From an uncultured Candidatus Saccharibacteria bacterium (GTDB taxonomy: Bacteria; Patescibacteriota; Minisyncoccia; UBA6257; JACRHW01), in contig CAYLXU010000007.1 of assembly GCA_964388055.1 (NCBI GenBank), forward strand, positions 13,661-29,037: a stretch of 15,377 nucleotides of DNA, written 5' to 3'. This document shows, piece after piece, positions 1-15,377 of this stretch. Position numbers and translations under genes: made by a program. The first letter of the stretch is position 1; every line of letters begins with the position of its first letter. A model generated the notes under the pieces. That model did no database searches. It was not told where the DNA came from and saw only the letters and a program-made list of their open reading frames with translations.

Positions 1-104
1 GTGCAGGAGGGGAGCGTAGAAAGGGAAAAATGTTTCGCGTGAAACATTTTGGGTGCAGGAGGGGAGCGTAGAAAGGGAAAAATGTTTCGCGTGAAACATT
101 TTGG
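1..104. repeat. 52-bp tandem direct repeat. Two complete identical copies at 1-52 and 53-104. A third copy begins at 105 (gtg) and then diverges. The array may continue left of the window.
   Basis: Units 1-52 and 53-104 are identical (gtgcaggaggggagcgtagaaagggaaaaatgtttcgcgtgaaacattttgg). Each unit carries the near-palindrome ATGTTTC-gcgt-GAAACAT. Confidence 0.9.
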
Positions 105-194
105 GTGGATTTTGGTACCGTGAAACATGTTTCACAGTATGTGAAACATGTTGTCAATATATAAATGTTTCACATCTTATTAAGCAGGTTGTCA
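30..194. promoter_or_regulatory. Array A of GTGAAACA/TGTTTCAC operator-like sites. 30-47 and 82-99 are ATGTTTCgcgtGAAACAT. 120-135 is the perfect 16-bp palindrome GTGAAACATGTTTCAC. 141-149 is a GTGAAACAT half-site, followed by TTGTCAAT at 151-158. 165-173 is an ATGTTTCAC half-site. A second TTGTCAAT lies at 189-196.
   Basis: Direct reading. Eight half-sites fall within about 145 bp. An 8-mer would be expected less than once in 15 kb by chance. The architecture is shared with array B at 3980-4048. Confidence 0.6.
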
Positions 195-204
195 ATGTAT
201 TTTA

Positions 205-239: not shown

Positions 240-1229
240 TTATGAAGTTGGGTAAATACACTCTTCTGGGGCTTTATCGCCCCGTAAACGAACAAATTGC
301 GGATGTCGCAACGCGCCAGAAGGAAATCTTCTCTGGTACTCAACCTGAACAACTAATGGATATGTTGCATGAGCAAAATCTTCACGCTCTGCATCGCTAA
401 AACCACCACCAACCTCGCCACATGAAACCATCTCTCCCGTCTGTGGATCTATCTGAGCAAGATATAATTTCCCCATTCTATCCTTGTTCTTTCCTGTTCC
501 ATACGTAAAACGCGTAGCTATGAAGTCATCCTCAAAATGAGGTTTCCACTTCCAACACCCATCGGGACGAATAGGCTGATCCTTCCTCCCATCAAGTCGA
601 AAAGCAGTTGGCTTTGTCCCATCGTAAAGAACGAGACCCTCCCACCCTTCTCTAAGAACCTGTTTCCGCGCCTTATTAAAGGAACAACTAAGTACAGGGA
701 CAGGGGAGATTGAAGAAACATGGGAACTGTTTTGATGTCCGCCAAACAAAGACTTAAGCATGTAAAGACGCTCCCTATATGGCTTGTCCGAAGTTATTCG
801 TCCCTCCCAAATAATAGGGTCAAAAATCATATACACGGCCTTACCAGCTTCGCTCTGAAGTGCGATAGCAGCCTCTGGCTTCGACTTCGCAATGCGGGTA
901 AGCATCTCGAACTCATCCCGACCACTATTATCGACCAACATCTCTCCATCAAAAAGAAAGTCTCCTGTAGGCAACCCTAGCCGCAAAAAGTCTTCACAAA
1001 TATGGGGATATAATGCAGTAACATCTTCGATCCCACGAGTATAGATCCTTACACGAGAGGAGGAAACCACTACTAAATGGCGATACCCATCTCTTTTGCG
1101 CGTGATGATCAAATCTCCTTGCTGCTCAAGTTCATACACCTTGCGATCTTCAACGCTGTGTTTTGGTTTAGCCGGAACAAAATTCTTATCAAGAGGATCG
1201 AGAGAAAAGGGGAGTATGTGCTGTAACAC
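240..1229 (-). CDS. ATP-dependent DNA ligase, small single-module type (329 aa). GTG start.
   Basis: Nucleotidyltransferase motifs: motif I KxDGxR (ITRKRDGYRH), motif III (FLFDGEMLV), motif IV (EGLVLY), motif V (WKWKP). SD GGAGGTG lies 5 nt upstream of the GTG start. Confidence 0.8.
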   Translation of the reverse strand: MLQHILPFSLDPLDKNFVPAKPKHSVEDRKVYELEQQGDLIITRKRDGYRHLVVVSSSRVRIYTRGIEDVTALYPHICEDFLRLGLPTGDFLFDGEMLVDNSGRDEFEMLTRIAKSKPEAAIALQSEAGKAVYMIFDPIIWEGRITSDKPYRERLYMLKSLFGGHQNSSHVSSISPVPVLSCSFNKARKQVLREGWEGLVLYDGTKPTAFRLDGRKDQPIRPDGCWKWKPHFEDDFIATRFTYGTGKNKDRMGKLYLAQIDPQTGEMVSCGEVGGGFSDAEREDFAHATYPLVVQVEYQRRFPSGALRHPQFVRLRGDKAPEECIYPTS

Positions 1230-2374: not shown

Positions 2375-3754
2375 TCACAATGTTTCGGAGAGTTTCTTGG
2401 CAACTTTCCACACATCACCCGCACCGATCGTAATCACCACAGAATTTTTTAAATCGCTTTTTTCTAAAACTTTGTTTACGCATACTAATGCATTTTCCAA
2501 GTTGCGTGCGTATTCAACAATGGTGGGGGAGTGAGCTCTTATTTTTTTAATCAAATCTTTTGAGCTGATTTTGCCTTTTTTCTCACGCGCTGATCCGTAC
2601 ACCTCTAGAACTACAACATGGTCTGCGTGATTAAAGGATTGTGCAAAGTCATCAATCAATGCTTCGGTACGAGAAAATGTATGAGGATGAAAAATGGCAA
2701 TAATTTTCTTCTTGGGAAATTTTTTTCGCGCAGCAGAAAGTGTTGCTTGTACTTCAGTGGGGTGATGCGCGTAGTCATCAATCACAATTGGATTTTTTTT
2801 CTTTATGATCTCAAACCTTCTGCTTGTTCCGTGAAATTTCAAAATCCCATCTTTTATTTTTTTATCACCCACACCCAATACTTTTCCAAGGGTATACACC
2901 GCAGCACTATTCAATGCGTTATGATCTCCCGCGAGCGATGTTTCGAGTGTAATTTCTTTTTTGTTCTTATGTGTGAGTGTGAAAGATTGCCGCACACCTT
3001 CTTCAGAAGATGGGAAAAGACGCACATCATTCTTTGCTCTATGCCCGTAAAATATTTTTTGACATCGCGCCACCTTCGCAACGTCGCGGACATCATCATT
3101 ATCTCCAAACGCAATAAGATATCCGTCTCGAGGAATACGCTTCACAAATTCACGAAATGTATTTTTATATGATTCAAAATCAGGAAAGTAATCAGGATGA
3201 TCATATTCGAGATGTGTGAGTACAACCACCTTCGGATTAAAATGGGAGAGTTTGTTTTGATATTCATCTCCTTCAATTACCCAATATTTTTTCTTTCCCA
3301 CAATTGCATTTGTACCCCACGCGCGAACACGTGACCCGACCACTACCGTAGGATCCAATCTCGCCTCGCGCAATACACTTCCCGCAAGTGCAGTAGTTGT
3401 CGTCTTTCCATGTGTCCCCGTAATAACAATTCCATAATGTCCGTGATTAAAAACCTCGCCCAACATCTCCGCATAAGAAAAAATTTTTATGCCATCTTTC
3501 TTAAGATACGCAAATTCAGGATTGTTTTTTTCATTATAGGCAGAAGATGCAACGTACACGTCAGCCACGTGCTGCACCACGTTATTCTTGTTGAATCCCT
3601 CGAATACTTTTATCTTTAGTTTTCGAAGTACCTCATCGGTGAAAAACTTTTCACTTACATCTGACCCAACGACCTCATACCCATTCGCCTTAAGCAACTG
3701 CGCAAGCGCAGTCATGCCAACCCCCTTAATACCAATAAAATATGCTTTCTTCAT
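2375..3754 (-). CDS. murC: UDP-N-acetylmuramate--L-alanine ligase MurC (459 aa).
   Basis: N-terminal IGIKGVGMTALA dinucleotide-binding segment. P-loop GTHGKTTTT. Typical Mur-ligase length and domain order. A TATAAT is readable on the minus strand at 3833-3828, about 70 nt upstream. Confidence 0.9.
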   Translation of the reverse strand: MKKAYFIGIKGVGMTALAQLLKANGYEVVGSDVSEKFFTDEVLRKLKIKVFEGFNKNNVVQHVADVYVASSAYNEKNNPEFAYLKKDGIKIFSYAEMLGEVFNHGHYGIVITGTHGKTTTTALAGSVLREARLDPTVVVGSRVRAWGTNAIVGKKKYWVIEGDEYQNKLSHFNPKVVVLTHLEYDHPDYFPDFESYKNTFREFVKRIPRDGYLIAFGDNDDVRDVAKVARCQKIFYGHRAKNDVRLFPSSEEGVRQSFTLTHKNKKEITLETSLAGDHNALNSAAVYTLGKVLGVGDKKIKDGILKFHGTSRRFEIIKKKNPIVIDDYAHHPTEVQATLSAARKKFPKKKIIAIFHPHTFSRTEALIDDFAQSFNHADHVVVLEVYGSAREKKGKISSKDLIKKIRAHSPTIVEYARNLENALVCVNKVLEKSDLKNSVVITIGAGDVWKVAKKLSETL

Positions 3755-3979
3755 ACCCGGTTATTACAATTTCGATTCGTAAAACGACATTTTTAAATAG
3801 CTCATGTGTGATCTATACATAGTCGAGATTATAGCAAAAAATGGTGTTCTTCTCTGTGCGTGAGCGCATATCGAAGTTGTAAAACCAGGCATGCTGCAAT
3901 AAACACATATGATATAACACGAAGCCTATACACAAAACAAATCCCTTACCTACATACATAGATGAGGTACAAAGAAAAA

Positions 3980-4048
3980 ATGTTTCACGTGAAACATTTC
4001 GTGAAACATCTTGACAATGTGTTTCACAAAATGTGAAACATGTTTCAC
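3980..4048. promoter_or_regulatory. Array B of the same operator-like motif. 3980-3997 is the perfect 18-bp palindrome ATGTTTCACGTGAAACAT. 4001-4009 is GTGAAACAT, followed by TTGACAAT at 4011-4018. 4019-4027 is gTGTTTCAC. 4033-4048 is the perfect palindrome GTGAAACATGTTTCAC.
   Basis: Direct reading. Six half-sites fall in 69 bp. The layout half-site / TTGACAAT / inverted half-site / 16-bp palindrome matches array A. Confidence 0.6.
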
Positions 4049-4058
4049 GGCGCGGTAA

Positions 4059-5537
4059 TCAAAGTGTCTTGCGCACATAATAGTCCACCGGTGCAAAATC
4101 ATCAGTAAGAATCGGTGTGTCATTTTCTACCTCTCCTTTCCATATCTGTTGCAAATATCCATTAATCTCCTCGTTGTCACTCTCAAAACTTGGAGACACG
4201 TCTGACTTTAGCGCGACCAGTATAATATTTTGTACGCGCGCGTTCTCTAATTTTCTTACAGGAAATAAATACACCTGAGGAAACACACTCTTGTATGTGG
4301 CATATTCAGCACGTAAAAATTCTCCCTGAACACCATTAATAGAAGAAATGATATTAATAATCGCGACCCCGTCGTCATGTAATGCACCAAATATTTTTTC
4401 CGTCGCCTCCCTTGTAGTGAGTTGATAGGGGATAGAATAAAGAGCATGAAACGCATCTCCAAAAATAACATCATATTTATTGCGAGTTGTGTTTAAAAAC
4501 GCTCTCGCATCCTCGTGAAAAATATTCAACCTTGGATCGTCTTTGAGATTAAAATAGCGTCGAGCTAACGCCGTTACCCCTTCATCAATCTCCACCACAT
4601 CAAGATACGCGTTGGGATATTGTTTTAAATAATCTCTTGGATATGTATACCCCGCACCACCTATCACAAGGGATTTTTTAATCTCCGGCTTGAAATGTTT
4701 TGCGATACGATAAAACTTGGTGTAGTCGAACACCAAGTCATCCTCTCCTTCTAGAAAAATGGCAGATTGCGTTCCAAACGGATCAAATGCCATGTTAAGA
4801 GTTTCTCTCTGTGTCTTAGAATCAACGCCCTTATAAATAAACACTCTGCTATATTTTGTATCTACATCAGCAACAAGAGATTTACCATACACAAGATGGG
4901 TACCGTTTTTAAAAAATAAAACGGTAAGAAAAAGTGCTATAAAAATTAATTTAGTTTTTAAAAACTTTTTTGAATCAACAGCAACCGCAACAAGAAGAAG
5001 GGTAAGCGCAAGTAAGATCAAAATTCTCTCCGAGCCAACATGAGGAATAAGAAGAAAACCTCCAAAGAATGTGCCAAAAATACTCCCAACAGTAGAAAGC
5101 GCATATAAATTTCCCGCCGTTGTTCCAGCAGTGTTTACGTTTTCTAATTTAAGCTTTAAAGCATAGGGAGAAATCATCCCCAACAACACGCTTGCCGGGG
5201 CAAATAAAATAAGCGCTGAAAAAAACGATGCAAATTCTATGCTTATCAAGCCCTGAAATGGGACAAGCACCATTCCTTTCATAAAAAGAGTGAACGCAAT
5301 GAGGAGAGCAGAGAAAAAAATAATCAACGAAAAAACTTCAATGCGAGGATTGTTGTCAGCCATTCTTCCACCAAACCAATATCCAAAACTTAGGCTTCCC
5401 AAAATCACCCCAATCAAACTAGTCCATACAAAAATAGAGGTACCTAAATAGGGGGCCAATATCCTCGAGCCAACAAGCTCAAAAATCATCACCACTGCCC
5501 CACATAAAAATACTGAGTATTCTAACTTATATCTCAT
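4059..5537 (-). CDS. Membrane-anchored spermidine/spermine synthase family protein (492 aa). An N-terminal multi-TM domain is fused to a C-terminal aminopropyltransferase-like domain.
   Basis: About 200 aa of hydrophobic helices are followed by a spermidine-synthase-like core. The core includes SLVIGGAGYTYPRDYL (a glycine-rich AdoMet-type loop) and DVIFGDAF. SD AGGAGA is upstream. Confidence 0.75.
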   Translation of the reverse strand: MRYKLEYSVFLCGAVVMIFELVGSRILAPYLGTSIFVWTSLIGVILGSLSFGYWFGGRMADNNPRIEVFSLIIFFSALLIAFTLFMKGMVLVPFQGLISIEFASFFSALILFAPASVLLGMISPYALKLKLENVNTAGTTAGNLYALSTVGSIFGTFFGGFLLIPHVGSERILILLALTLLLVAVAVDSKKFLKTKLIFIALFLTVLFFKNGTHLVYGKSLVADVDTKYSRVFIYKGVDSKTQRETLNMAFDPFGTQSAIFLEGEDDLVFDYTKFYRIAKHFKPEIKKSLVIGGAGYTYPRDYLKQYPNAYLDVVEIDEGVTALARRYFNLKDDPRLNIFHEDARAFLNTTRNKYDVIFGDAFHALYSIPYQLTTREATEKIFGALHDDGVAIINIISSINGVQGEFLRAEYATYKSVFPQVYLFPVRKLENARVQNIILVALKSDVSPSFESDNEEINGYLQQIWKGEVENDTPILTDDFAPVDYYVRKTL

Positions 5538-5634: not shown

Positions 5635-5994
5635 TTATGTATCAACCTCTTTCTTTAAAAGATTAATAACCTTCTCTCGCAACCCATATTCTTCGGGAAT
5701 GCGACGCAGATAATATTGCAATGTTTCAATAAATTCATTTGTAGTCATAATAGCTTTACGCTCTTCCTTGGTAAAAAACTTCTGTAGTTTCCCGCGCGCT
5801 TCATCGATACACTGAATCACTTCATCGACTTGATACTCTTTTTCTCCCTCTCCGTGTATCACAGAAAGTATTTTAAGTTCCTTCTTTAAAGCATCGAAAG
5901 AGTCTATGCCTTGAAACGGTGCCTCTGTTTTCGTCGCCCCCACTGCTTCTTGTTGTCTCTTTGTAGAAGCAGGAATTTGTTTTGGTTGTTCCAT
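5635..5994 (-). CDS. Hypothetical protein (119 aa), acidic and hydrophilic.
   Basis: Complete ORF, terminated by the 5594-5624 hairpin. No SD and no recognisable motifs. It lies directly downstream (minus strand) of tRNA-Val and the structured element. Confidence 0.5.
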   Translation of the reverse strand: MEQPKQIPASTKRQQEAVGATKTEAPFQGIDSFDALKKELKILSVIHGEGEKEYQVDEVIQCIDEARGKLQKFFTKEERKAIMTTNEFIETLQYYLRRIPEEYGLREKVINLLKKEVDT

Positions 5995-6190: not shown

Positions 6191-6192
6191 GG

Positions 6193-6265
6193 TGGACGGT
6201 ACAGGACTCGAACCTGTGACCCTCTCGGTGTAAACGAGATGCTCTACCAACTGAGCTAACCGTCC
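6193..6265 (-). tRNA. tRNA-Val, anticodon UAC, 73 nt. CCA is not encoded.
   Basis: Manual cloverleaf: acceptor GGACGGT/ACCGTCC, D-arm GCTC-AGTTGGTA-GAGC, anticodon arm TCTCG-TTTACAC-CGAGA (anticodon TAC), variable loop GGGTC, T-arm ACAGG-TTCGAGT-CCTGT, discriminator A. Confidence 0.9.
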
Positions 6266-6458: not shown

Positions 6459-7679
6459 ATGAAACGAAACATCGCGTTTTTTTTAAGTGTATTTCTTCTA
6501 GCACTTTTTGCGCCAGCCTACGCGACTCCTGAAAATCTTTCCCAGGAAGGAACTCGACTCTTTATACCAAGAGAGCAAGTGGAAGCCCTCCTCCCTATCA
6601 AGTACCGTATTGAGGGGATCATACAAGGAGCAGAAGGGCTGACAGACAAGACAAACGCAAACAAAGCGGTTACACAACAACTTTCTCTTGCAAAAAATAT
6701 TCTTGGACGCGAAACAAATGTGAAAGAACTCCTGAATCTTCAACCACCCCCACCCCCTCAGCTTACCCCGCTTCAAAAGGCGGCAGGTTTTGTAACATTT
6801 GTAAACATCCTTTGGGTCTTTGCGATCTGTTTGCTCCTGATGAGTCTCTGGTATCTTATCCCACGATGGTTCGGGTGGGTAGTGCTCATTTTCCAAATGA
6901 TTCCTGCAGAACTCTACGAACTGCTTCTCTATGCCGCAAGTTTTGGACTTGTCCTCTACGGTGCACAGCTGGATCCAGAAATCGGACAGTATCTTGCCCT
7001 CACCGGATGCCTCTTCCTTATGGGATCACTCACTTTCACGACGTACCTACACGAACTTAAACTAAGCGGAACAGGGTTCTCCGGAATCCTCTTTATTGCA
7101 TGGGCGCTTGCAGCAGTGATTTGCAACAGTCCGCTTGTAGGATTTCTCGCTATCATGGCGCTTATGAGTGCACTTGGGTTCAGCATCATTGTTACACCCA
7201 TGTGTTATGGAATCGGTTTTGAAGAAGAGAGTTTTGTGGGAAGAGCAACCTCTGCAGCATTTATTGTACTTGGCATCTTCGTAGTTCTCCGCATTACAGG
7301 AGCCCAACTCCCCTACATAATGGTATTCGAAAAAGGAGCCCTCTTTATGGGAAGTTTTGTGGGATACCTCGGACTTCTTATTGCATCGTCCCGGTGGTTC
7401 ATGAACCGTAGTCCCGAAGGATACATCGGGTTCCAGCTTCTCACTATTCTTGCCGGAGTTGCAGCGCTCTTTGTAGGATCTACGTGGAACATCGCAGAAC
7501 TTCAAAAAATCGGTGGAACATTCTTCGTCCTATACCTGATCGAAAAAACAATGGAAATTCCGGTAGACAAAAAAGAGCACTACGCATACATCCTACTCTT
7601 TCTCTCACTCCTTATCTATGGGCTTTGTATGTTTATCAAAACACATTTTGATCTCGTCCGCCCATATCTGTTTATGTAA
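6459..7679 (+). CDS. Integral membrane protein of unknown function (406 aa). A signal peptide and a roughly 110-aa extracytoplasmic domain are followed by a PPPPP linker and about 9 TM helices.
   Basis: N-terminus MKRNIAFFLSVFLLALFAPAYA-TPE has a signal-peptidase-I-like AYA|T site. QPPPPPQLTP follows, then repeated hydrophobic segments to the C-terminus. A promoter, SD and terminator are all present. Confidence 0.75.
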   Translation: MKRNIAFFLSVFLLALFAPAYATPENLSQEGTRLFIPREQVEALLPIKYRIEGIIQGAEGLTDKTNANKAVTQQLSLAKNILGRETNVKELLNLQPPPPPQLTPLQKAAGFVTFVNILWVFAICLLLMSLWYLIPRWFGWVVLIFQMIPAELYELLLYAASFGLVLYGAQLDPEIGQYLALTGCLFLMGSLTFTTYLHELKLSGTGFSGILFIAWALAAVICNSPLVGFLAIMALMSALGFSIIVTPMCYGIGFEEESFVGRATSAAFIVLGIFVVLRITGAQLPYIMVFEKGALFMGSFVGYLGLLIASSRWFMNRSPEGYIGFQLLTILAGVAALFVGSTWNIAELQKIGGTFFVLYLIEKTMEIPVDKKEHYAYILLFLSLLIYGLCMFIKTHFDLVRPYLFM

Positions 7680-7724
7680 ACCCTCACCAAATACTCAGCC
7701 CAAAAACTGAGATCCAACGTAGCA

Positions 7725-7760
7725 AAAAAGAAATCCCCAAAGAATGGGGATTTTATTTTT
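7725..7760 (+). terminator. Intrinsic terminator for the membrane-protein gene.
   Basis: ATCCCCA-aagaa-TGGGGAT (7733-7751) followed by TTTTATTTTT. Confidence 0.65.
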
Positions 7761-7761
7761 G

Positions 7762-7788
7762 CACAAAAAAGAGGGGAATCCCCCTCAA
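7762..7788 (-). terminator. Intrinsic terminator for the flotillin gene (minus strand).
   Basis: Minus strand reads GAGGGG-gatt-CCCCTC followed by TTTTTTGTGC. The plus-strand stem is 7771-7786. Confidence 0.6.
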
Positions 7789-7793
7789 ATATT

Positions 7794-9575
7794 TTACTCT
7801 GTTGCAACTTCCTGCTCTTCTTTTTTCTTATCATCATCTTTTACAGACATGCCATCAAGTATCTCTGAAGTAACCCCAATCTTTTCAAGAAGGTTTCCAA
7901 AACCAAGCGCCTTGGCTTTTGCAATAACATTAAAAAACATTTCTGGCGTAAGGTTTGCAAACTTATTAAGAGCCCCGCTACCACTTCCGTTGCTGTTCCC
8001 ACCAAAGTCATACATCCGAATCGAATCAACGCTTGAAAGCGGAGCAGCCATCTGCCCAAACACGTTCGCGAGACCTTGAGGACCGAGCGCCTTCGCAAGA
8101 GCGTCGCCAAGAGATTCCGCGACACGTGGTGCAGCATCAAGCACCTGGAGAAGTTTACCTGTCTGATCAAGTTGCGCAAGCGCCTTAGCAAGTTGCTCTT
8201 TACCCTTCGCTTCAGCAAGAAGTTTCGCCTCTGCACCCTTCGCTTCAGCCATAAGCTCTGCTTCCTTACCCGTTGCATTCGCAACAAGCTCTGCTTCAAC
8301 ACCCGCTGCCGCAGCAAGACGCTTTGCCTTTTCACCATCAGCTTCTGCAGTAAGCCTTGCACGCGTTGCATCCGCATCACCCTGACCACGTTTTGCAGTT
8401 GCCTCTGCATCCGCCTCAGCCTTCGTCTTAATGGCTTGTGCCTGTTTTGCCGCAGCCTCAAATGCTGCCTCTGCCTGAATAATCTGTTTTGATTTTTCTG
8501 CCTCTGCGGAAATAACTTGAGTCTTGCGCTCTGCCTCGGCCTTAATAATGGCGGATTCCCGCTCTGCCTCGGCAGGTTTAATTACTTGGAATTGAAGTTC
8601 TTTTTCTACACGCAGGGTTTCCTGCTCCGCAAGACGAATCTTTGACTCAGTCTCAGCAGCAAGAGCCTCAACCCTCTTCTGTCGCACTTCCTTATCACGC
8701 TCAGCAGTTGCAATAGCACCAGCCTGCTCGGCAATGGCACGCTCACGATCCGTAAGTGCCTTAAACTGGGCAACTTGAACGTCGCGCTCCTTCTGAGCCT
8801 GTGCAACAGCAACTGCGTTCTGGGCAGCAACAAGTTCGGCCTCTTTCTTTGCGTTACTTGCAGCAATATCCGCATCACGCGTCGCCTCGGCTTCACCGAT
8901 CTGCGCATCTCGCTTTACCTCAGCGGTACGCCTCTTGCCCAATGATTCAATATATCCAGACGTATCTGAAATTTGCTGAATGGTAAGAATAGTAACGCGC
9001 ACACCAATCTTCAGAAGCTCAGTCTCTGCACCAGAAAGGACCGCCCTATTAAGAGACTCACGATTTCCAATAAGGTTTTCAATGGTGAGCGTGCCAAGAA
9101 TGGAGCGCAGCTGACCCTCAAGGTTTTCCCGAATAATGGTATTAATGTCTTCGTCCTTTTTCCCCTCAAAGGTTCGCACCGCCGCAATCAGAGTTGCCAT
9201 ATCGGATCCAATCACAACGGTCGCCGTACCTCTAGCATTTACCATAACTCCGCCCTCAGTAGGAATATCTTTCACCTCGAGTGGGATAAGACGCGCATCG
9301 AGACGCAGCTCCGAATAGTCCTCAAAAAATGGCCACACAAGAGCACCACCACCCGTAAGAAGTCGGAATCCCAACTCTTCTTTCTTTTTTGTCCCATCGG
9401 CGCCAGTCACCTCATATGTGTTTTTCCGACCATAAATGATACCAACCCTGCTTGGCGGTACTCGCTTATACCTACTCGTGGCATAACGCGCTGCGCTAAA
9501 AAGTGCCAAACAAACGAGAAGTGCACCAATAATCAATCCAAGATTTGACATAACTACCTTAAGAAGTTCCTCCAT
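7794..9575 (-). CDS. Flotillin (SPFH/band-7 domain protein, FloT/YuaG-like), 593 aa.
   Basis: An N-terminal TM helix is followed by an SPFH domain and a long alanine/glutamate-rich coiled coil with the AEAE(A/K) flotillin repeats (for example AEAEKSKQIIQAEAAFEAAAKQAQAIKTKAEADAEA). The tail is G/S-rich. SD GGAAGGAGA is upstream. The gene sits 4 nt downstream of nfeD. Confidence 0.9.
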   Translation of the reverse strand: MEELLKVVMSNLGLIIGALLVCLALFSAARYATSRYKRVPPSRVGIIYGRKNTYEVTGADGTKKKEELGFRLLTGGGALVWPFFEDYSELRLDARLIPLEVKDIPTEGGVMVNARGTATVVIGSDMATLIAAVRTFEGKKDEDINTIIRENLEGQLRSILGTLTIENLIGNRESLNRAVLSGAETELLKIGVRVTILTIQQISDTSGYIESLGKRRTAEVKRDAQIGEAEATRDADIAASNAKKEAELVAAQNAVAVAQAQKERDVQVAQFKALTDRERAIAEQAGAIATAERDKEVRQKRVEALAAETESKIRLAEQETLRVEKELQFQVIKPAEAERESAIIKAEAERKTQVISAEAEKSKQIIQAEAAFEAAAKQAQAIKTKAEADAEATAKRGQGDADATRARLTAEADGEKAKRLAAAAGVEAELVANATGKEAELMAEAKGAEAKLLAEAKGKEQLAKALAQLDQTGKLLQVLDAAPRVAESLGDALAKALGPQGLANVFGQMAAPLSSVDSIRMYDFGGNSNGSGSGALNKFANLTPEMFFNVIAKAKALGFGNLLEKIGVTSEILDGMSVKDDDKKKEEQEVATE

Positions 9576-9579
9576 GTTA

Positions 9580-10077
9580 TTAGCTCTCCTTCCTTTCTAC
9601 TAAGCAGACACCGCCGGTATCTGCCGTGACCCTTACCGGCGTTCCCGCCGGCAAAGTCTGACCACTTTGAGAACGAGCAACAAACTCTTGAGTACCTCCA
9701 GCAACGTCACACACAATCTTGCCCACACTATTGGAGGGAATCTCGATGGTCACAACCCCAAGCGTATTCAGAAGCCGCGAAGAGGTAACCATAGAATCAC
9801 CTTGCTGTTTACGCATCATCTGCATTAGGCCGAATGCCAAACACCAACACAAAACACCGATCCCAACACCACCAAGGGTGCTCATTCCAACAGGATAGCC
9901 ATTAACCTGCATAAGAGTGCCCACACCACCAAAACCGACAAGAAACCAAGAAACTGTAAAAACAGAAAAAATACCACCATCATGGCCATCGTGGCCGCCC
10001 ACATCGTGATCTCCAAACAGAACGGACACCAACATAAGTGCCACACCAATCACACCAGACACAAGAAATAACGCCAT
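9580..10077 (-). CDS. NfeD-like membrane protein (YuaF-like short form, about 165 aa), the upstream partner of flotillin.
   Basis: The ORF-track start at 10284 is rejected. The internal ATG at 10077 is preceded by AAGGAGGagaatgat. The protein (MALFLVSGVIGVALMLVSV...) has two or three TM helices, then a soluble C-terminal beta-rich domain (GKIVCDVAGGTQEFVARSQSGQTLPAGTPVRVTADTGGVCLVE). This is typical of NfeD OB-fold proteins encoded with SPFH genes. Confidence 0.7.
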   Translation of the reverse strand: MALFLVSGVIGVALMLVSVLFGDHDVGGHDGHDGGIFSVFTVSWFLVGFGGVGTLMQVNGYPVGMSTLGGVGIGVLCWCLAFGLMQMMRKQQGDSMVTSSRLLNTLGVVTIEIPSNSVGKIVCDVAGGTQEFVARSQSGQTLPAGTPVRVTADTGGVCLVERKES

Positions 10078-10109
10078 ATCATTCTCCTCCTTTCTTTTCA
10101 AGGAACATG

Positions 10110-10125
10110 TCGCCAAAATTGGCGA
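10110..10125. promoter_or_regulatory. Perfect 16-bp palindrome TCGCCAAAATTGGCGA in the nfeD 5' leader.
   Basis: Read directly. It lies between the putative minus-strand -35 (TTGACAA, rc of 10161-10167) and the nfeD SD. It may be an operator or a leader hairpin. Confidence 0.4.
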
Positions 10126-10159
10126 TCTAACCAAACAATTTCTTACACAAAGCACCAAC

Positions 10160-10190
10160 CTTGTCAATATATCTTGTTTTATTTTTATGG
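10160..10190. promoter_or_regulatory. Divergent promoter region. The plus strand reads TTGTCAAT and the minus strand reads TTGACAA over the same 8 bp (10161-10168).
   Basis: The minus-strand TTGACA has a 16-17-nt spacer to a weak TAAGAA. The plus-strand TTGTCA lies about 70 nt upstream of the GGAGGTGG SD of the small ORF. The same TTGTCAAT word occurs at 151-158 and 189-196, and TTGACAAT at 4011-4018. Confidence 0.35.
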
Positions 10191-10234
10191 TTATGGCATG
10201 ACTAATACAGAACCTTGAACGGAGGTGGTCAAAC

Positions 10235-10480
10235 TTGAATACAGACGACCCGCTTGCGTCGTTGATTCTCCGCATAAGGACCATTGTGCTGATTTTTATA
10301 GCATTGTATGTAGCGCTCTATATTATAAGACACCAAATTACTCCCGCAGCACCTCAACCTACGCAAGAGGTAAAAATCCAGGCAACGACACCTGTAACCG
10401 AATTGCAGAAGGAGCCGGTCCAAAAACAAAAACCAGAAAAAACACAAACACCAAAGAAACAAAAGAAAAACCCCAGATAG
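10235..10480 (+). CDS. Small single-TM protein with a K/Q/P-rich C-terminal tail (81 aa). TTG start.
   Basis: Strong SD GGAGGTGG lies 6 nt before the TTG. A TM segment TIVLIFIALYVALYII is present. The stop falls in the loop of a perfect terminator hairpin. Confidence 0.5.
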   Translation: MNTDDPLASLILRIRTIVLIFIALYVALYIIRHQITPAAPQPTQEVKIQATTPVTELQKEPVQKQKPEKTQTPKKQKKNPR

Positions 10481-10490
10481 GGGTTTTTAA
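10464..10490. terminator. Bidirectional intrinsic terminator between the small ORF (+) and dcd (-).
   Basis: AAAAACCCC-agata-GGGGTTTTT (stem 10471-10474 paired with 10480-10483). Confidence 0.7.
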
Positions 10491-10509
10491 TTATCCACTT
10501 CCCACCTTT

Positions 10510-11175
10510 CTATTTTCCTACTTCCCGGTCTTGATACAGTCGTGGGAGCATCATGTCTGGCTTCCACGACTTTTTGAGCTTTTCAAAATCCTTCACATTC
10601 TGATACTTTCCATCTGACGCATAATCCTTTGCTGCAATCTCCTTTACATCAAAAAAAATAATCTGCGCGATACGACGCCCGACCACAAGCGGAATAGTAT
10701 AGTGTCTGGAATTATTTGTAATCTCCATCGTCCAGCGATTTACATAACCAACGTCTCCCCATCCCGCACACTTACACACCTCTATAAAATTCCTTCCAAG
10801 CGACGAACGTGCCTTCATCATTGTGGTAATAGTGCCACGCCCACCAATAAACTCATTCGTGTGCCCAAGTATCGTCTCCCCTGGCTCCAAAAGGATGACC
10901 CTATCTTCGGGAGCGATCCCCTTAAAATCAAAGTGCTTTAACACCTTTGCTGCCTTCTCCGCCTTAAAATGTTCCTTACCCCATACACGTTCTACGTGTT
11001 CCTTATTATATATGTTATATAAATGCACATAATTGTCCGGCCTCCTCTCGCGGAAAAAATATTCACCAAGCGATACGTCATAACTTGATGTCTTTAAATT
11101 TTCGGTCTGGTAGGGATCAATAACAATGTTCCCTTGCTCAATTGCTTGTAAAATCGCTTTATCACCTAGAGTCAT
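10510..11175 (-). CDS. dcd: dCTP deaminase family protein (Dcd/dUTPase fold), 221 aa.
   Basis: The N-terminus is Dcd-like (TLGDKAILQAIEQGNIVIDP...SYDVSLG). The ARSSLGR and GW.D.GY segments are conserved. There is no SD. Confidence 0.75.
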   Translation of the reverse strand: MTLGDKAILQAIEQGNIVIDPYQTENLKTSSYDVSLGEYFFRERRPDNYVHLYNIYNKEHVERVWGKEHFKAEKAAKVLKHFDFKGIAPEDRVILLEPGETILGHTNEFIGGRGTITTMMKARSSLGRNFIEVCKCAGWGDVGYVNRWTMEITNNSRHYTIPLVVGRRIAQIIFFDVKEIAAKDYASDGKYQNVKDFEKLKKSWKPDMMLPRLYQDREVGK

Positions 11176-11281
11176 AATTGTAGAAAATAAAAATTAGTAA
11201 CCAAAACTCAGAAATTTGAGTGTATTTTTTTAGACCACCTTCTTAAGTAAGCTTATCGGGTTTAGCTCTTGTCAGAAAGAC

Positions 11282-11310
11282 TTGACATATGTATATATAT
11301 GTGATACACT
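11282..11310 (+). promoter_or_regulatory. Sigma70 promoter for the GC-rich ORF. TTGACA (11282-11287), 17-nt spacer, TACACT (11305-11310).
   Basis: The hexamers and spacer were read directly. SD GGGGG lies at 11328-11332 and the ATG at 11343. Confidence 0.55.
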
Positions 11311-11342
11311 GTAACTAGCACACTGAAAGGGGGTTTGCAGCA

Positions 11343-11702
11343 ATGCAGACTACCAACAACTTCAAAGACATCTTCGGCTTCGAGCCAGCAAAAACGCAGG
11401 CAGCCACGCCGATCGAGACCAGCATCGTGAACTCCAAGCTCGGTGAACTCCTCTGCACGTACGACGGCTTGCACGAGGAGAAGCAGGCGCTCGTGGAGAA
11501 GTACCACGACGGTATTCCCAAGGGCATCAGCATCGAGCAGGCGCTCAAGGACCGAGAGGTCGCGCTCGATCTCGAGAAGAGAACGCGTGAAGCCTGGAAC
11601 GCTTTCGAGGGCTCAGGAAGCATGGCCAAGTCCGCTGGATATGCCGTGGATGACACCAACAAGCTTCGAGAGGACAACAAGAAGGCCACCGTCAACGCGT
11701 AA
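11343..11702 (+). CDS. Hypothetical small acidic protein (119 aa). Its composition (about 60% GC) and codon usage are anomalous, so it is probably horizontally acquired.
   Basis: GC counted at 36/60 for 11401-11460, against 33-42% in sampled flanking genes. Third codon positions are C/G-rich (AAG, GAG, ATC, CTC, GGC, GAC). It has its own promoter, SD and terminator. Other-frame ORFs here are Arg/Ser-rich artefacts. Confidence 0.65.
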   Translation: MQTTNNFKDIFGFEPAKTQAATPIETSIVNSKLGELLCTYDGLHEEKQALVEKYHDGIPKGISIEQALKDREVALDLEKRTREAWNAFEGSGSMAKSAGYAVDDTNKLREDNKKATVNA

Positions 11703-11710
11703 GGCCGCAA

Positions 11711-11746
11711 AGGCAGGGTAACCAACCCCTGCTTTTTCTTTTTTAT
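11711..11746 (+). terminator. Intrinsic terminator of the GC-rich ORF.
   Basis: GCAGGG-taaccaac-CCCTGC (11713-11732) followed by TTTTTCTTTTTTAT. Confidence 0.65.
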
Positions 11747-11891
11747 TCAAACTAAAGCCTAAACAAAACTCTGGGTGTATGCCGAGATATCTTCCACACC
11801 TAAACAACCCCCTACCCCCATTTTCTACTTTATAGGGACGTGCTATCCTAAATCCAGTTCGTTTACAGTATAATAGGAGGAATAAAAACAC

Positions 11892-12713
11892 ATGCGACAA
11901 TATCTCGACCTCCTCAAAGACATTCTAGAAAATGGCGTAGACCGTCCGGATCGTACAGGGGTGGGAAGCAGGGCAGTCTTTGGAAGACAGATGAGATTTG
12001 CTATGGCGGATGGATTTCCGGCAGTAACCACTAAAAAGTTGGCGTTTAAGTTAGTTAAAGCAGAACTTCTGTGGTTCCTTAGTGGAAGTTCCGACGTAAA
12101 CAAGCTCCGTGAACTTGGTTGCACAATTTGGGACGAAAATGCAGAAGCGCCCTATTGGAAACCAAAAGCGCGGTTTGAGGGAGACTTGGGACGAGTATAT
12201 GGGGTACAGTGGCGCTCATGGCGAACCCCCTCAGGAACAGAAGTTGATCAAATCGCCCAACTCATTGACCGCATAAAAACAAATCCACACGACAGACGCC
12301 ACATTGTAAACGCTTGGAATCCTGGCGAGTTAGACCAAATGGCGCTTCCACCATGCCATGCCTTCTTTCAATGTTTTGTAGTAAATGACACCATCTCGCT
12401 TCAAATGTATCAACGAAGCTGCGATATGTTTTTAGGCGTACCATTCAACATTGCCTCTTATTCGCTCTTGCTTCACATGATTGCACAAGTAACCGGATTA
12501 AAAGCAGGGGAGTTTGTCCATACTCTTGGGGACGCACATATCTACCTTGACCACTTTGATCAGGTCAAAGAACAACTCACTCGGGAACCCCTACCACTTC
12601 CGCAACTCTGGCTTAATCCAGACATCAAAGACTTGCACAATTTCACAATGGACGACATTAAGCTTATTGGATATAAAAGCCATGAAGGTATTAAAGCCCG
12701 AATGGCGGTATAA
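11892..12713 (+). CDS. thyA: Thymidylate synthase ThyA (273 aa).
   Basis: Canonical ThyA sequence throughout: MRQYLDLLKDILENG..DRTG.G..FG.QMRF....GFP..TTKK. The active-site region LPPCHAFFQ and the segment MYQRSCDMFLGVPFNIASYSLL are present. SD AGGAGG lies 11 nt upstream. Confidence 0.95.
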   Translation: MRQYLDLLKDILENGVDRPDRTGVGSRAVFGRQMRFAMADGFPAVTTKKLAFKLVKAELLWFLSGSSDVNKLRELGCTIWDENAEAPYWKPKARFEGDLGRVYGVQWRSWRTPSGTEVDQIAQLIDRIKTNPHDRRHIVNAWNPGELDQMALPPCHAFFQCFVVNDTISLQMYQRSCDMFLGVPFNIASYSLLLHMIAQVTGLKAGEFVHTLGDAHIYLDHFDQVKEQLTREPLPLPQLWLNPDIKDLHNFTMDDIKLIGYKSHEGIKARMAV

Positions 12714-12788
12714 CCTCACCTAAAGGGGTATTAAAAATCCGAACCCTCCCACGCCGAGGCTTTGGGGGGTGAATAAGGAGGAAAAACG

Positions 12789-13298
12789 ATGATCACCATC
12801 TCACTCGTTGCAGCAATGGCACACAACCGCATCATTGGGAATAAAAATAAACTTCCATGGAAACTCCCTGCAGACATGAAGCGCTTCAAGGAACTCACGC
12901 GAGGAAAAATTGTCATCATGGGAAGAAAAACATTCGAGTCGATTGGAAAACCCCTCCCTAATAGAACAAACATTGTCATCACATCACAAGATATCGAAAT
13001 TCCAGGATGTATCGTATCACGTGGCGGTGACGGACCATGGCTACGGGCACTCATTGCCCACCTCGATGGAGCGCCGGAAGAAGTGATGGTAATCGGAGGC
13101 GCCTCTGTCTATCAACAATTTCTTCCCAAAGCAGATCGCATTTATCTCACCTATATTGATGCTGAATTTGAAGGCGATGCAACGTTCCCCATCTTTGAGA
13201 ATCCAAACGTATGGGAAGAAACCGAACGAATAACATACGAGCCAGATGAGCAAAACCTTTACCCCTACACCTTCCTCACCTTTGAAAAAAGAAAATGA
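12789..13298 (+). CDS. folA: Dihydrofolate reductase FolA (169 aa).
   Basis: Canonical DHFR N-terminus (ISLVAAMAHNRIIG..NKLPW.LPADMKRFKELT.GK.VIMGRKTFESIG.PLP.R.NIV.TS). SD AAGGAGG is upstream. The gene follows thyA after 75 nt, so co-transcription is likely. Confidence 0.95.
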   Translation: MITISLVAAMAHNRIIGNKNKLPWKLPADMKRFKELTRGKIVIMGRKTFESIGKPLPNRTNIVITSQDIEIPGCIVSRGGDGPWLRALIAHLDGAPEEVMVIGGASVYQQFLPKADRIYLTYIDAEFEGDATFPIFENPNVWEETERITYEPDEQNLYPYTFLTFEKRK

Positions 13299-13309
13299 TA
13301 AACAAAAAA

Positions 13310-13340
13310 CCAAAAAGCCGCCCACAGGCGGCCTTTTACT
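13310..13340 (+). terminator. Intrinsic terminator after folA.
   Basis: GCCGCC-caca-GGCGGC (13317-13332) followed by CTTTTACTT. Confidence 0.55.
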
Positions 13341-13412
13341 TGTCTACGGATGTATGACATATCATACATTTAGTTGATACTCTTTTTTCTTATTTCAATT
13401 TACAATAAAATT

Positions 13413-13889
13413 ATGAAAACATATTCGATTATGATTGGCGGAGTTGCGACCCTCATCACTCTTTTCATTGTTTTTGCGAGCAACACTGGAGATAGTACGT
13501 CACCACACACCGCTCAACAGTCCAAAGTCACAATCGGGTCAACAACCATTTCTGTTGAAATCGCACGCACGCCGCAGGAACGCGCACAGGGGTTGTCACA
13601 CCGCACATCCCTCGATGAAAACAGGGGAATGTTATTTTTATTTGAAAAACCAGATCTTTATGCGTTCTGGATGCCAAACATGAAATTTCCAATCGACATT
13701 ATTTGGATTGATACAAATAACACCATTGTCGATATACATGAAAATGTTCCCCCATTACAGAACGAACTTTACCCCACATATTATAAACCACAACATCCCG
13801 CGATTTCAGTTCTTGAAGTCAACGCGGGATTTGGAAAACGACACAACATCAAAACAGGAGACAAAATCATATTCAATGCTCCAAATTAA
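13413..13889 (+). CDS. DUF192-domain protein with an N-terminal signal anchor (about 158 aa from the ATG at 13413). The ORF track's TTG at 13374 is an alternative start.
   Basis: DUF192 hallmarks: TPQERAQGL, GMLFLF, FWMPNMKFPIDIIWID, VLEVNAGF, IKTGDKI. The hydrophobic N-terminus is IMIGGVATLITLFIVFA. Confidence 0.75.
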   Translation: MKTYSIMIGGVATLITLFIVFASNTGDSTSPHTAQQSKVTIGSTTISVEIARTPQERAQGLSHRTSLDENRGMLFLFEKPDLYAFWMPNMKFPIDIIWIDTNNTIVDIHENVPPLQNELYPTYYKPQHPAISVLEVNAGFGKRHNIKTGDKIIFNAPN

Positions 13890-13916
13890 AAAAACATGCA
13901 CGTGCATGTTTTTTAT
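13887..13916. terminator. Bidirectional intrinsic terminator between the convergent DUF192 gene and the small 2-TM ORF.
   Basis: AAAAAA-ACATGCACGTGCATGT-TTTTT. The perfect palindrome at 13893-13910 is flanked by A-runs and T-runs. Confidence 0.7.
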
Positions 13917-14161
13917 TAGGACAATATTGATGCCATAAACAATTGAATAGTTGCGCAAAAAAGCCATGTTCCGGCAGCGAAAAAGGCCACCCAACTCCCC
14001 TTAAGAGCATCGAGTCCATAATTAACAGAGGCGATTATACAGACAGTCCCCGCAAGAACGTGAATCACAAAACTGCTTTCCCAAAAAAGCGGAATAAGAC
14101 AAACGAGAGCGGCAGCAAAACCAAAAAAAGTCGATTCTGTCCTAATCTTATCTTCTTGCAT
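13916..14161 (-). CDS. Small membrane protein with two predicted TM helices (81 aa).
   Basis: Excellent SD AAAAAGGAGGTG lies 6 nt before the ATG. Hydrophobic segments AAALVCLIPLFW and VAFFAAGTWLFCATIQLFMASIL are present. It is divergent from the amidase gene. Confidence 0.6.
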   Translation of the reverse strand: MQEDKIRTESTFFGFAAALVCLIPLFWESSFVIHVLAGTVCIIASVNYGLDALKGSWVAFFAAGTWLFCATIQLFMASILS

Positions 14162-14194
14162 AAAGCACCTCCTTTTTAAGATGAACTAACAAAA

Positions 14195-14223
14195 TATATA
14201 TCACACGTGTTGACTTGTGTAAA
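14195..14223 (-). promoter_or_regulatory. Candidate promoter for the small 2-TM ORF. TTTACA (rc of 14218-14223), 17-nt spacer, TATATA (rc of 14195-14200).
   Basis: Read directly. It interleaves with the amidase promoter on the other strand. Confidence 0.45.
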
Positions 14224-14238
14224 TGAAACAGGGATAAT
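14210..14238 (+). promoter_or_regulatory. Sigma70 promoter for the amidase gene. TTGACT (14210-14215), 17-nt spacer, GATAAT (14233-14238).
   Basis: Hexamers at 5/6 and 5/6 of consensus with an exact 17-nt spacer. It lies about 27 nt upstream of the GTG start. Confidence 0.6.
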
Positions 14239-14264
14239 GATCCATCGTACATTCACAACCAGAG

Positions 14265-15170
14265 GTGAGATATGTGAAACGCAACATTCTGATAAGCGTT
14301 GTTCTTTTGCTTACGTGTTGTATGGGAGTCATCGCAAAAATACGGCATTGCCCCACAGAACCTGAAATTAAACTTGAAATCCAAAGGCAGAAGACAGCCG
14401 TTGCCGTACTACGTGCAAAAATAAAACAAACTTCCTCACTAAGAAACTATTACGTTGTGATAGATCCGGGGCACGGAGACGGTGACCCTGGAGCAATAAG
14501 AGACGTAGAAATCAAAAAGAATACAACTATTTCTGTATCTGAAAGTGTTCTTACCCTTGACATCTCGCGACGTCTTGCGTGGAATCTTAGGCAACATGGT
14601 TGCAATATCTTCATGACATTGGGTCCCACAACGATTACAGAGGCACAAGATACATACGCCTTCTGGCACCCCTTCTCACCACCATTTATATTAAAAGAGC
14701 TTAAGCCCCTTCTTTCTCCCTCTCCGTATGCATATACCCCACTTGAGCAAGCACTCACCACACGAACAGAGGTGGCAAACCAAAAAGTACGGAGGTTTGG
14801 AAAGAGAAAAGTTCTTTTTACCTCAATACACGTAGACTCTACAACCTCTTCCGTAAGCGGCATGCGAATCTATTCATATTATGGGACAAGATCTCATCTC
14901 AGTGACACGCTTGCCAAAACCGCAAAAGAAAAGAAGATGGCAAGAGTTAAAAGGGTCGGAAACAAAGAGTTCCCATTTTTTTCAAGCCTCAAATCCGGTT
15001 TTATAGTGATCAACCCAGACTTTAATTACGCACAAGATAAGGTCCTGATAGAAACCGCGAACATCAGAAACGATGCAGACTTCAAGCTCCTTTGCACAGC
15101 TGAGGGAAGAGAGCGTATTGCACAAACCATCGCGGAAGGAATCATCCTTTATGTCTCAAAAAAACGATAA
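14265..15170 (+). CDS. N-acetylmuramoyl-L-alanine amidase (Amidase_3 family, AmiC/CwlC-like) with an N-terminal signal or anchor sequence (301 aa). The start is either GTG 14265 or GTG 14274.
   Basis: Zn-amidase signature YVVIDPGHGDGDPGA at the start of the catalytic domain. LFTSIHVDS is the family's second conserved metal-binding segment. A hydrophobic N-terminus ILISVVLLLTCCMGVIA is present. SD AGAGGTGAG overlaps 14261-14269, which favours the GTG at 14274 as the true start. Confidence 0.8.
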   Translation: MRYVKRNILISVVLLLTCCMGVIAKIRHCPTEPEIKLEIQRQKTAVAVLRAKIKQTSSLRNYYVVIDPGHGDGDPGAIRDVEIKKNTTISVSESVLTLDISRRLAWNLRQHGCNIFMTLGPTTITEAQDTYAFWHPFSPPFILKELKPLLSPSPYAYTPLEQALTTRTEVANQKVRRFGKRKVLFTSIHVDSTTSSVSGMRIYSYYGTRSHLSDTLAKTAKEKKMARVKRVGNKEFPFFSSLKSGFIVINPDFNYAQDKVLIETANIRNDADFKLLCTAEGRERIAQTIAEGIILYVSKKR

Positions 15171-15225
15171 TCTCGGCAATCCCGAGATTTTTAATTTTTA
15201 CATTAAATATGCTAAGGTGTGGTCA

Positions 15226-15377
15226 TGGAAAAAGAAAACATTCCTATTATTCTTACCACGCATCCGTCAGCGGATTATGAACTAATCGACAGCGGTAACA
15301 ACGAAAAATTGGAACGCTATGGTCAGGTTATTTTACGCCGCCCGGACCCGCAAGCGCTATGGCACAAAACAAATGAG
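15226..15377 (+). CDS. 5' end of a gene that runs off the window (first 50 codons, MEKENIPIILTTHPSADYELIDSGNNEKLERYGQVILRRPDPQALWHKTNE...). Function unassigned.
   Basis: ATG at 15226 is preceded by SD AAGGTG with a 7-nt spacer. The frame is open to the window end. Fifty residues are too few for a family call. Confidence 0.45.

Follow-up and report, generated by a model that had tools for sequence, protein, structure and literature searches.

The 69-bp element at positions 3980–4048 of the 15,377-nucleotide stretch of DNA that was analysed here (the window), termed array B, is probably a centromere-like cluster at which ParB nucleates, and the same holds for array A at the left end of the window; the binding of ParB is predicted from the sequence. 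The full site of array B is identical in sequence to chromosomal parS, its half-site motif is extremely localised, the position of the cluster is conserved in five related species, and a ParB whose recognition residues are of the parS type is encoded in the same species. The 69 bp, which the first-pass annotation took for the whole spacer between murC and a speE-like gene, are part of an intergenic region of 304 bp (3755–4058).

The parS site and the half-sites of arrays A and B

The palindrome ATGTTTCACGTGAAACAT, the unit of inverted half-sites and the palindrome GTGAAACATGTTTCAC, described earlier as the three elements of array B, are all present as reported (Table 1). Two palindrome arrangements, CATATG-centred and CACGTG-centred, had also been distinguished; both exist, while the motif itself had gone unrecognised, the CACGTG-centred form being the parS site TGTTTCACGTGAAACA. 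The array B copy matches canonical chromosomal parS at 16 of 16 positions and the two array A copies at 15 of 16. A scan of the window for the parS 16-mer, allowing up to three mismatches, gave three matches (one perfect, two with one mismatch) against 0.14 expected. The conserved consensus for chromosomal parS across phyla is TGTTNCACGTGAAACA (PMC7022226), the duplex co-crystallised with Caulobacter ParB is GATGTTTCACGTGAAACATC, and the exact string TGTTTCACGTGAAACA is in use for parS in the ParB-parS literature. The central 18 bp at the array B site are identical to the co-crystal duplex, and the palindrome around it is perfect over 22 bp (3978–3999). The match to the consensus thus identifies the CACGTG-centred palindrome as parS, and the CATATG-centred one can be read as the same two parS half-sites placed back to back.

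Table 1. Coordinates of the features discussed in the text; positions refer to the window unless a contig is named, and a slash marks abutting half-sites.
Feature	Position	Strand	Description
Array A, first part	1–107	none	52-bp tandem repeat, at least 2.1 copies, 100% identity; cut by the window start
One-mismatch parS TGTTTCGCGTGAAACA	31–46 and 83–98		one in each 52-bp repeat copy of array A
Array A, second part	118–195	-	reverse dyad 120–135, half-sites 141–148 and 166–173, two TTGACAA boxes
Array A TTGACAA boxes	151–157 and 189–195	-	motif scan
murC	2375–3754	-	Pfam Mur_ligase, Mur_ligase_M, Mur_ligase_C; array B upstream in all six species
Array B layout, 5' to 3'	within 3961–4060		aaaaaa-TGTTTCAC/GTGAAACA-tttc-GTGAAACA-tc-TTGACAA-tg-TGTTTCAC-aaaat-GTGAAACA/TGTTTCAC-ggcgcgg
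parS hairpin, then UUUUUUCUUU	3975–4000	- (sense)	RNA fold
parS site TGTTTCACGTGAAACA	3981–3996	none	perfect 16-bp palindrome; 18-bp form ATGTTTCACGTGAAACAT at 3980–3997
Solo half-site GTGAAACA	4001–4008	+	exact 8-mer; no abutting partner half-site
Inverted half-site unit GTGAAACAT-c-TTGACAAT-g-TGTTTCAC	4001–4027		seen in the sequence
TTGACAA box, -35-like	4011–4017	+	between two inverted half-sites
Solo half-site TGTTTCAC	4020–4027	-	exact 8-mer copy
Reverse dyad GTGAAACATGTTTCAC	4033–4048	none	two outward-facing half-sites; identical to 120–135
Perfect DnaA boxes in related contigs	L007 ~3757; L012 ~3585; L050 ~640–680; L053 ~5730–5760		
TTCCG-N-CGGAA palindromes in related contigs	L011 ~700–950; L007 ~3800–3830; L012 ~3640–3660; L003 ~11880–11960	reverse (L011)	

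The half-site is the exact 8-mer GTGAAACA, or TGTTTCAC on the other strand. It occurs 12 times on the two strands of the window, six times within 3981–4048 and six times within 39–173, and each copy contains the heptamer GTTTCAC. Shuffled windows hold 0.63 ± 0.78 copies, and 0 of 200 shuffles reached 12. Half-sites of the same orientation in array B are spaced at 12, 32, 44, 39, 21 and 60 bp, with no clean helical phase, and the array is without tandem repetition. Across the clade the full parS sites are flanked by A4 and T4 tracts, and the solo sites mostly read TGTTTCAC-A.

Array A has one parS in each 52-bp unit, a period of about five helical turns. It lies 3.85 kb from array B and is inverted relative to it: a 43-nt inverted repeat relates 118–160 to 4008–4050 (88% complementary), and the flanks of the full palindromes are alike (21–49 and 73–101 against 3971–3999, 90%). 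These repeats, together with the excess of half-sites, bear out the view that the arrays are homologous and not chance AT-rich sequence. The further claim of a shared module architecture stands as far as the homology goes and fails in its detail, as the arrays are inverted and array A carries minus-strand TTGACAA boxes instead of TTGACAAT. That string occurs once in the window, not above chance, and is missing from array A; TTGACAA has four copies in the window against 4.1 expected, three of them inside the arrays. In relatives the array A repeat runs to three to four or more copies (L003, L005, L012), on contigs that break off within it. Like most of the related contigs, the window has one of its ends within the 52-bp repeat, where the assembly breaks, and array A lies at the contig end in all contigs. 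Each unit of the repeat in relatives (L003 12100–12303, L005 8540–8694, L012 3300–3590) has an extra TGTTTCAC. An ATP-dependent DNA ligase gene (240–1229, minus strand; DNA_ligase_A_M, OB and C-terminal domains), found in this species only, lies between array A and murC.

Conservation in related species and the ParB of the same species

When the regions upstream of orthologous murC genes were compared, as had been proposed, the half-site cluster was found to be kept directly upstream of murC in five related species (L003, L004, L005–9, L012 and L136), three of which have MurC proteins of 75–80% identity (measured for P0001, P0002 and P0004). The usual form of array B in these relatives is GTGAAACA-tttt-GTGAAACA-TGTTTCAC-GcGAAACA, in which a reverse dyad overlaps with a parS of one mismatch, and in L136 it consists of two solo half-sites and a perfect parS. 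L004, L005 and L012 have the 16-mer reverse dyad upstream of murC, and L003 has it with a single mismatch; depending on the relative, about 0 to 480 bp separate the array from the murC start. The array A module is present in five species and adjacent to murC in four. It lies downstream of murC in L003, L005 and L012, and its order in relatives is two TTGACA boxes, three half-sites and the 52-bp tandem repeats with a parS each, the parS sites being perfect in L012. The same array is found on a separate contig (L011) in GCA_016211955.1, beside a UPF0102/YraN gene, and no array lies downstream of murC in that genome.

The weight given earlier to the bracketing of a ligase–lipoprotein–murC block by the two arrays is not borne out, since the cargo is absent from the relatives and array A is placed elsewhere in GCA_016211955.1, so that murC need not be bracketed. 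Among the species compared, only that of the window has the ligase, the lipoprotein, the speE-like gene and the Band-7 block. Positions 4059–5537 (the speE-like gene) and 6459–10284 (encoding a 406-aa protein, a Band-7/SPFH protein and a 234-aa protein) have no counterpart in the syntenic region of the relatives, where dcd is followed by tRNA-Val, a small ORF, array B and murC. The speE-like gene and the 406-aa/Band-7/234-aa block are lineage-specific insertions around the centromere cluster.

In 93 kb of non-redundant clade sequence, 67 of the 73 half-sites fall within 1.67 kb of arrays; the other six, spread over the remaining 91 kb, are close to the random rate, and 13 kb of L134 hold none. 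Because of this confinement the motif is not a dispersed repeat family, which the first-pass annotation had named as the finding that would overturn its own account. A scan of GTDB genomes for the TTGACAA module matched three species and says little on its wider distribution. Palindromes of the form TTCCG-N-CGGAA, for example tttccgaattaccggaaa, which are loosely Noc-site-like, are found beside array A in relatives (Table 1), and none in the window.

The genes of the window encode housekeeping proteins (MurC, ThyA, DHFR, Dcd, an amidase and the ATP-dependent ligase), the last gene being that of a methyltransferase, and no ParB gene is among them; the best homologues of MurC are in Parcubacteria and Patescibacteria MAGs. 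Contig L134, which overlaps positions 10153–15377 at 99.37% identity (5,229 bp), is from the same species, and its sample also contains a copy of the murC region that is 99.8% identical to the window (L001). About 3.7 kb past the window end, L134 encodes Sua5 followed by a 405-aa ParB (P0123), which puts about 15 kb between array B and the ParB gene on its right. P0123 has ParB_N, HTH_ParB and ParB_C domains, Pfam domains that are also found in its orthologues; orthologous ParB genes occur in the same synteny, 6–8 kb from murC, in the relatives L003, L005 and L136.

The HTH of P0123 was mapped onto the positions that determine specificity in Caulobacter ParB (PMC7383237). The specificity residues are R173, T179, Q184 and S201, with R204 kept; P0121 shares R173, T179, S201 and R204, and position 184 is Q or G in the two proteins. 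R173 contacts guanine 1 of parS and is invariant among parS binders, while the usual residue at 201 is Gly, with Ser tolerated by parS-specific variants and S/T common among dual-specificity variants too (PMC7383237). The Noc signature Q173/K179/K184/R201 is absent from P0123 and P0121. Box II of P0123 reads GERRLL, without the last of the three arginines in the common motif GERRxR, so that loading and spreading may differ from those of the model proteins. The clade ParB is also extended at its N terminus by about 100 aa of low complexity, and no parA adjoins parB. Among 120 patescibacterial ParBs (P0121–P0240), box II is GERRLM in 43, GERRLL in 31 and GERRLR in 25, Ser is frequent at specificity position 201, and none of the 120 has a GLG(R/K)GL motif. 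Several ParB homologues of 620–710 aa are fused to an NTP_transferase domain (PF00483).

Proposed mechanism and alternative readings

A CTP-bound ParB dimer would be predicted to nucleate at the parS site of array B, to close into a clamp and to slide onto the flanking DNA, where sliding clamps would build a partition complex for the organisation and segregation of the chromosome. The other exact half-sites of array B (five, among them two solo sites and one outward-facing pair) may serve as auxiliary contacts for one ParB DNA-binding domain each, either raising the local occupancy of ParB or bridging arrays A and B; we infer this role for the half-sites, as well as any effect on the expression of murC. 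A ParB dimer on the canonical dyad leaves the solo half-sites, the outward-facing dyads and the conserved TTGACA boxes unexplained.

The TTGACA box embedded in array B has been considered as the -35 element of a promoter from which transcription would cross the array, perhaps under the control of ParB. Besides the presence of three of the four TTGACAA copies inside the arrays, this is favoured by the alignment of array A, in which the aTTGACR boxes are kept in five species and are followed 16–17 bp later by (G)TGAAACAT or TGAAACA, the spacing at which TGAAACA also follows the array B box (hand count), and by L053 and L103, in which parS and a reverse dyad stand 4 bp upstream of a good TTGACA-16-TATACT promoter (spacer hand-counted). 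The array nevertheless lacks the second half of a promoter: scan and inspection agree that no -10 with A2 and T6 lies 16–18 bp after any of the three TTGACA boxes on either strand, as had been said earlier for the array B box, and the TGAAAC found 17 bp downstream of the latter is without A2 and T6. A sigma-70 promoter scan of 3975–4050 called nothing, which supports the earlier suggestion that the element may not be a simple promoter; moreover, the array B unit faces the 3' end of the speE-like gene in antisense orientation, and TTGACAaaaTGTTTCAC in the unrelated contig L049 is likewise without a -10. We rejected the promoter reading on the empty scan and on the want of a usable -10 for all three boxes, and regard it as very unlikely. 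The real murC promoter is probably the extended -10 TGcTATAAT at 3828–3836 (minus strand), 74 bp upstream of the murC start and 147–220 bp from array B by inspection. It is similarly very doubtful that the main role of the palindromes is played in RNA, as hairpins or as intrinsic terminators of bidirectional form at the end of the speE-like gene. On the sense strand the array B region has a folding energy of -27.2 kcal/mol (z = -3.7), with the parS hairpin followed by the U-run UUUUUUCUUU, and the A4 and T4 tracts around the full parS sites of the clade would suit such a role, yet the fold of the antisense strand is equally good, as any DNA palindrome would have it. The hairpin stem is AU-rich with two G-C pairs (our reading of the fold) and was not called by the terminator scan, because it has fewer than three. 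The four or more tandem copies and the conservation of exact 8-mers, in place of compensatory changes, point to recognition as DNA, and the arrays have no Rfam match, the sole match in the window being tRNA-Val at 6191–6265. An RNA element was accordingly rejected on the lack of an Rfam family at the arrays and the symmetry of the folds on both strands, although the parS hairpin with UUUUUUCUUU may double as a weak terminator of the speE-like gene.

The least credible readings take the arrays for the terminal inverted repeats of a mobile element, for members of a dispersed repeat family, or for a piece of oriC. The 43-nt inverted repeat does flank a 3.8-kb block, L007 and L012 have the perfect DnaA box TTATCCACA after their last tandem repeat, and DnaA boxes border the arrays of L050 and L053. 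The relatives, however, have arrays without the ligase and lipoprotein cargo, their array B is without the repeated arm, and half-sites are essentially absent outside the arrays. A mobile element or invertible segment was rejected on the relatives' lack of both cargo and shared arm and on a gene order and orientation shared by all species. The window has two one-mismatch DnaA boxes against 4.0 expected, none of them in the arrays and without a cluster, and has no dnaA gene; its GC skew is negative throughout, with no switch of sign, and is negative in L134 too. With neither an enrichment of DnaA boxes nor a skew switch, oriC was rejected. The skew is positive across the collinear 21 kb of L136 from a related species, which suggests that the same gene block lies in a different replication orientation there or that the skew is dominated by something else; the skew is therefore no guide to whether the arrays lie near the origin, as parS sites typically do. 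In four contigs (Table 1) a perfect DnaA box (TTATCCACA, complement TGTGGATAA) marks the edge of the parS arrays that faces UPF0102/YraN; the window stops short of the equivalent position. Somewhat less remote, if still unlikely, is that the half-sites are operators of a regulator other than ParB that controls murC or cell-wall genes, perhaps by repression through looping between arrays A and B. Array B is upstream of murC in six species and the array A module, present in five, is next to murC in four; in other lineages arrays of this kind stand on either side of an Amidase_2 gene (L131) or of Mur ligase and FemAB genes (L053); solo and outward-facing half-sites are unlike the canonical ParB dyad; and the isolated reverse dyad of high-GC bacteria looks like an operator. 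On the other side, the full sites match universal parS at 16 of 16 positions with a parS-type ParB encoded nearby, array B lies at no fixed distance from the murC start, GCA_016211955.1 has its array A module away from murC, and tandem 52-bp repeats with a parS each resemble a centromere such as sopC of F. An operator of direct repeats of the MraZ type, prompted by the cell-wall neighbours and by the 10-bp repeats of L127 and L027, was also tried and rejected, as the window arrays are not 10-bp direct repeats. Known MraZ boxes are GTGGG-like and do not match the array motif.

The reading of the arrays as ParB nucleation clusters can be set against known systems. With the chromosomal ParB(Spo0J)-parS systems of the B. 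subtilis, C. crescentus and T. thermophilus type they share the identical 16-bp palindrome, a ParB with ParB_N, HTH_ParB and ParB_C domains, a GERR motif and the parS-contacting R173, and several sites clustered within about 20 kb of parB. They differ in the packing of one full site and five half-sites into 69 bp and in the conserved outward-facing dyads and solo half-sites, and the clade ParB differs in S201, in GERRLL, in its N-terminal extension, and in the lack of GLG(R/K)GL and of an adjoining parA. ParB of P. aeruginosa and several others bind the half-parS heptamer GTTTCAC in vivo, the P. aeruginosa half-sites being GTTCCAC/GTTTCAC (PMC5961200, PMC10419367). The core heptamer GTTTCAC is the same here, and these proteins provide a precedent for occupancy of single half-sites without spreading, whereas the P. 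aeruginosa half-sites are scattered by the hundreds over the genome and the exact 8-mers described here are concentrated in a centromere cluster of conserved position. In the sopC locus of the F plasmid a 43-bp repeat that contains a 16-bp SopB site occurs 12 times in tandem (PMC3597684). Array A alone is similar, its head-to-tail 52-bp units each containing one 16-bp ParB-type palindrome; unlike sopC, the context and the parS sequence are chromosomal, and array B has no tandem repeats. Transcriptional effects mediated by ParB have been described, for example for the S. pneumoniae parS near comCDE (PMC4488948). As with that site and with KorB-OB operators, a ParB-family site lies upstream of a gene, and in L053 and L103 it abuts a good promoter, but no fixed operator-promoter geometry is seen at murC. 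What we describe is therefore a known system in which the full site is ordinary and the packed, partly back-to-front layout of half-sites is conserved and previously undescribed.

Half-sites in other lineages and what the arrays may mean

A metagenome scan for the reverse dyad GTGAAACATGTTTCAC returned at least 120 stretches. Among the 120 matches listed, 10 have a perfect parS within 200 bp, 17 have at least two further half-sites, and 93 are isolated reverse dyads, 38 of these in high-GC contigs. Two to five perfect parS sites are mixed with reverse dyads in L050, L053 and L112, the L053 array adjoining UPF0102 and a Mur ligase. Arrays lie on both sides of an Amidase_2 gene in L131, and one array lies beside such a gene in L038. 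The short contigs L127, L027/L057, L097 and L073 hold arrays of half-sites only, with no full parS, some of them arranged as 10-bp direct repeats or as GTGAAACA-nn-TGTTTCAC pairs. Elsewhere, too, arrays of parS and half-sites flank peptidoglycan genes (L131 9960–11000, Amidase_2; L053 5815–11570, Mur ligase and FemAB), a recurrence that echoes murC and could reflect shared synteny or a functional link.

The isolated form (A)GTGAAACATGTTTCAC(T) is seen in contigs of 60–75% GC (L018, L020, L022, L031, L056, L061, L124 and about 30 others), and the high-GC dyads that were examined are upstream of catabolic genes; neighbours encode aldehyde dehydrogenase, a KshA-type Rieske oxygenase, acyl-CoA dehydrogenase, amidohydrolase and GH92. 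In these contigs the reverse dyad is probably the operator of an unrelated regulator. Its occurrence alone upstream of catabolic genes in high-GC contigs means that the 16-mer by itself is not diagnostic of ParB.

The arrangements observed, outward-facing pairs with a gap of 0 or 2 bp and direct repeats at a 10-bp phase, lead us to a tentative suggestion, offered with low confidence: patescibacterial centromeres may replace the single canonical dyad with a grammar of half-sites, in which ParB, or its DNA-binding domain, would bind one per exact GTGAAACA in any orientation. If so, ParB could be recruited or loaded with no need for a parS dyad, and loading at half-sites might be coupled to the TTGACA boxes and to the cell-wall genes murC, Amidase_2 and Mur ligase with FemAB.

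Literature searches for ParB-parS in Parcubacteria (CPR) found nothing, so that with these arrays a parS locus would be described from a lineage of this group for the first time, and palindromes that had been unexplained are assigned to the best-known bacterial centromere system. The interest of the architecture lies in exact half-sites in non-canonical orientation that are conserved beside a full site and recur in independent uncultivated lineages. Should ParB make use of these half-sites, they would bear on how CTP-dependent clamps are recruited and loaded and on whether a symmetric dyad is needed.
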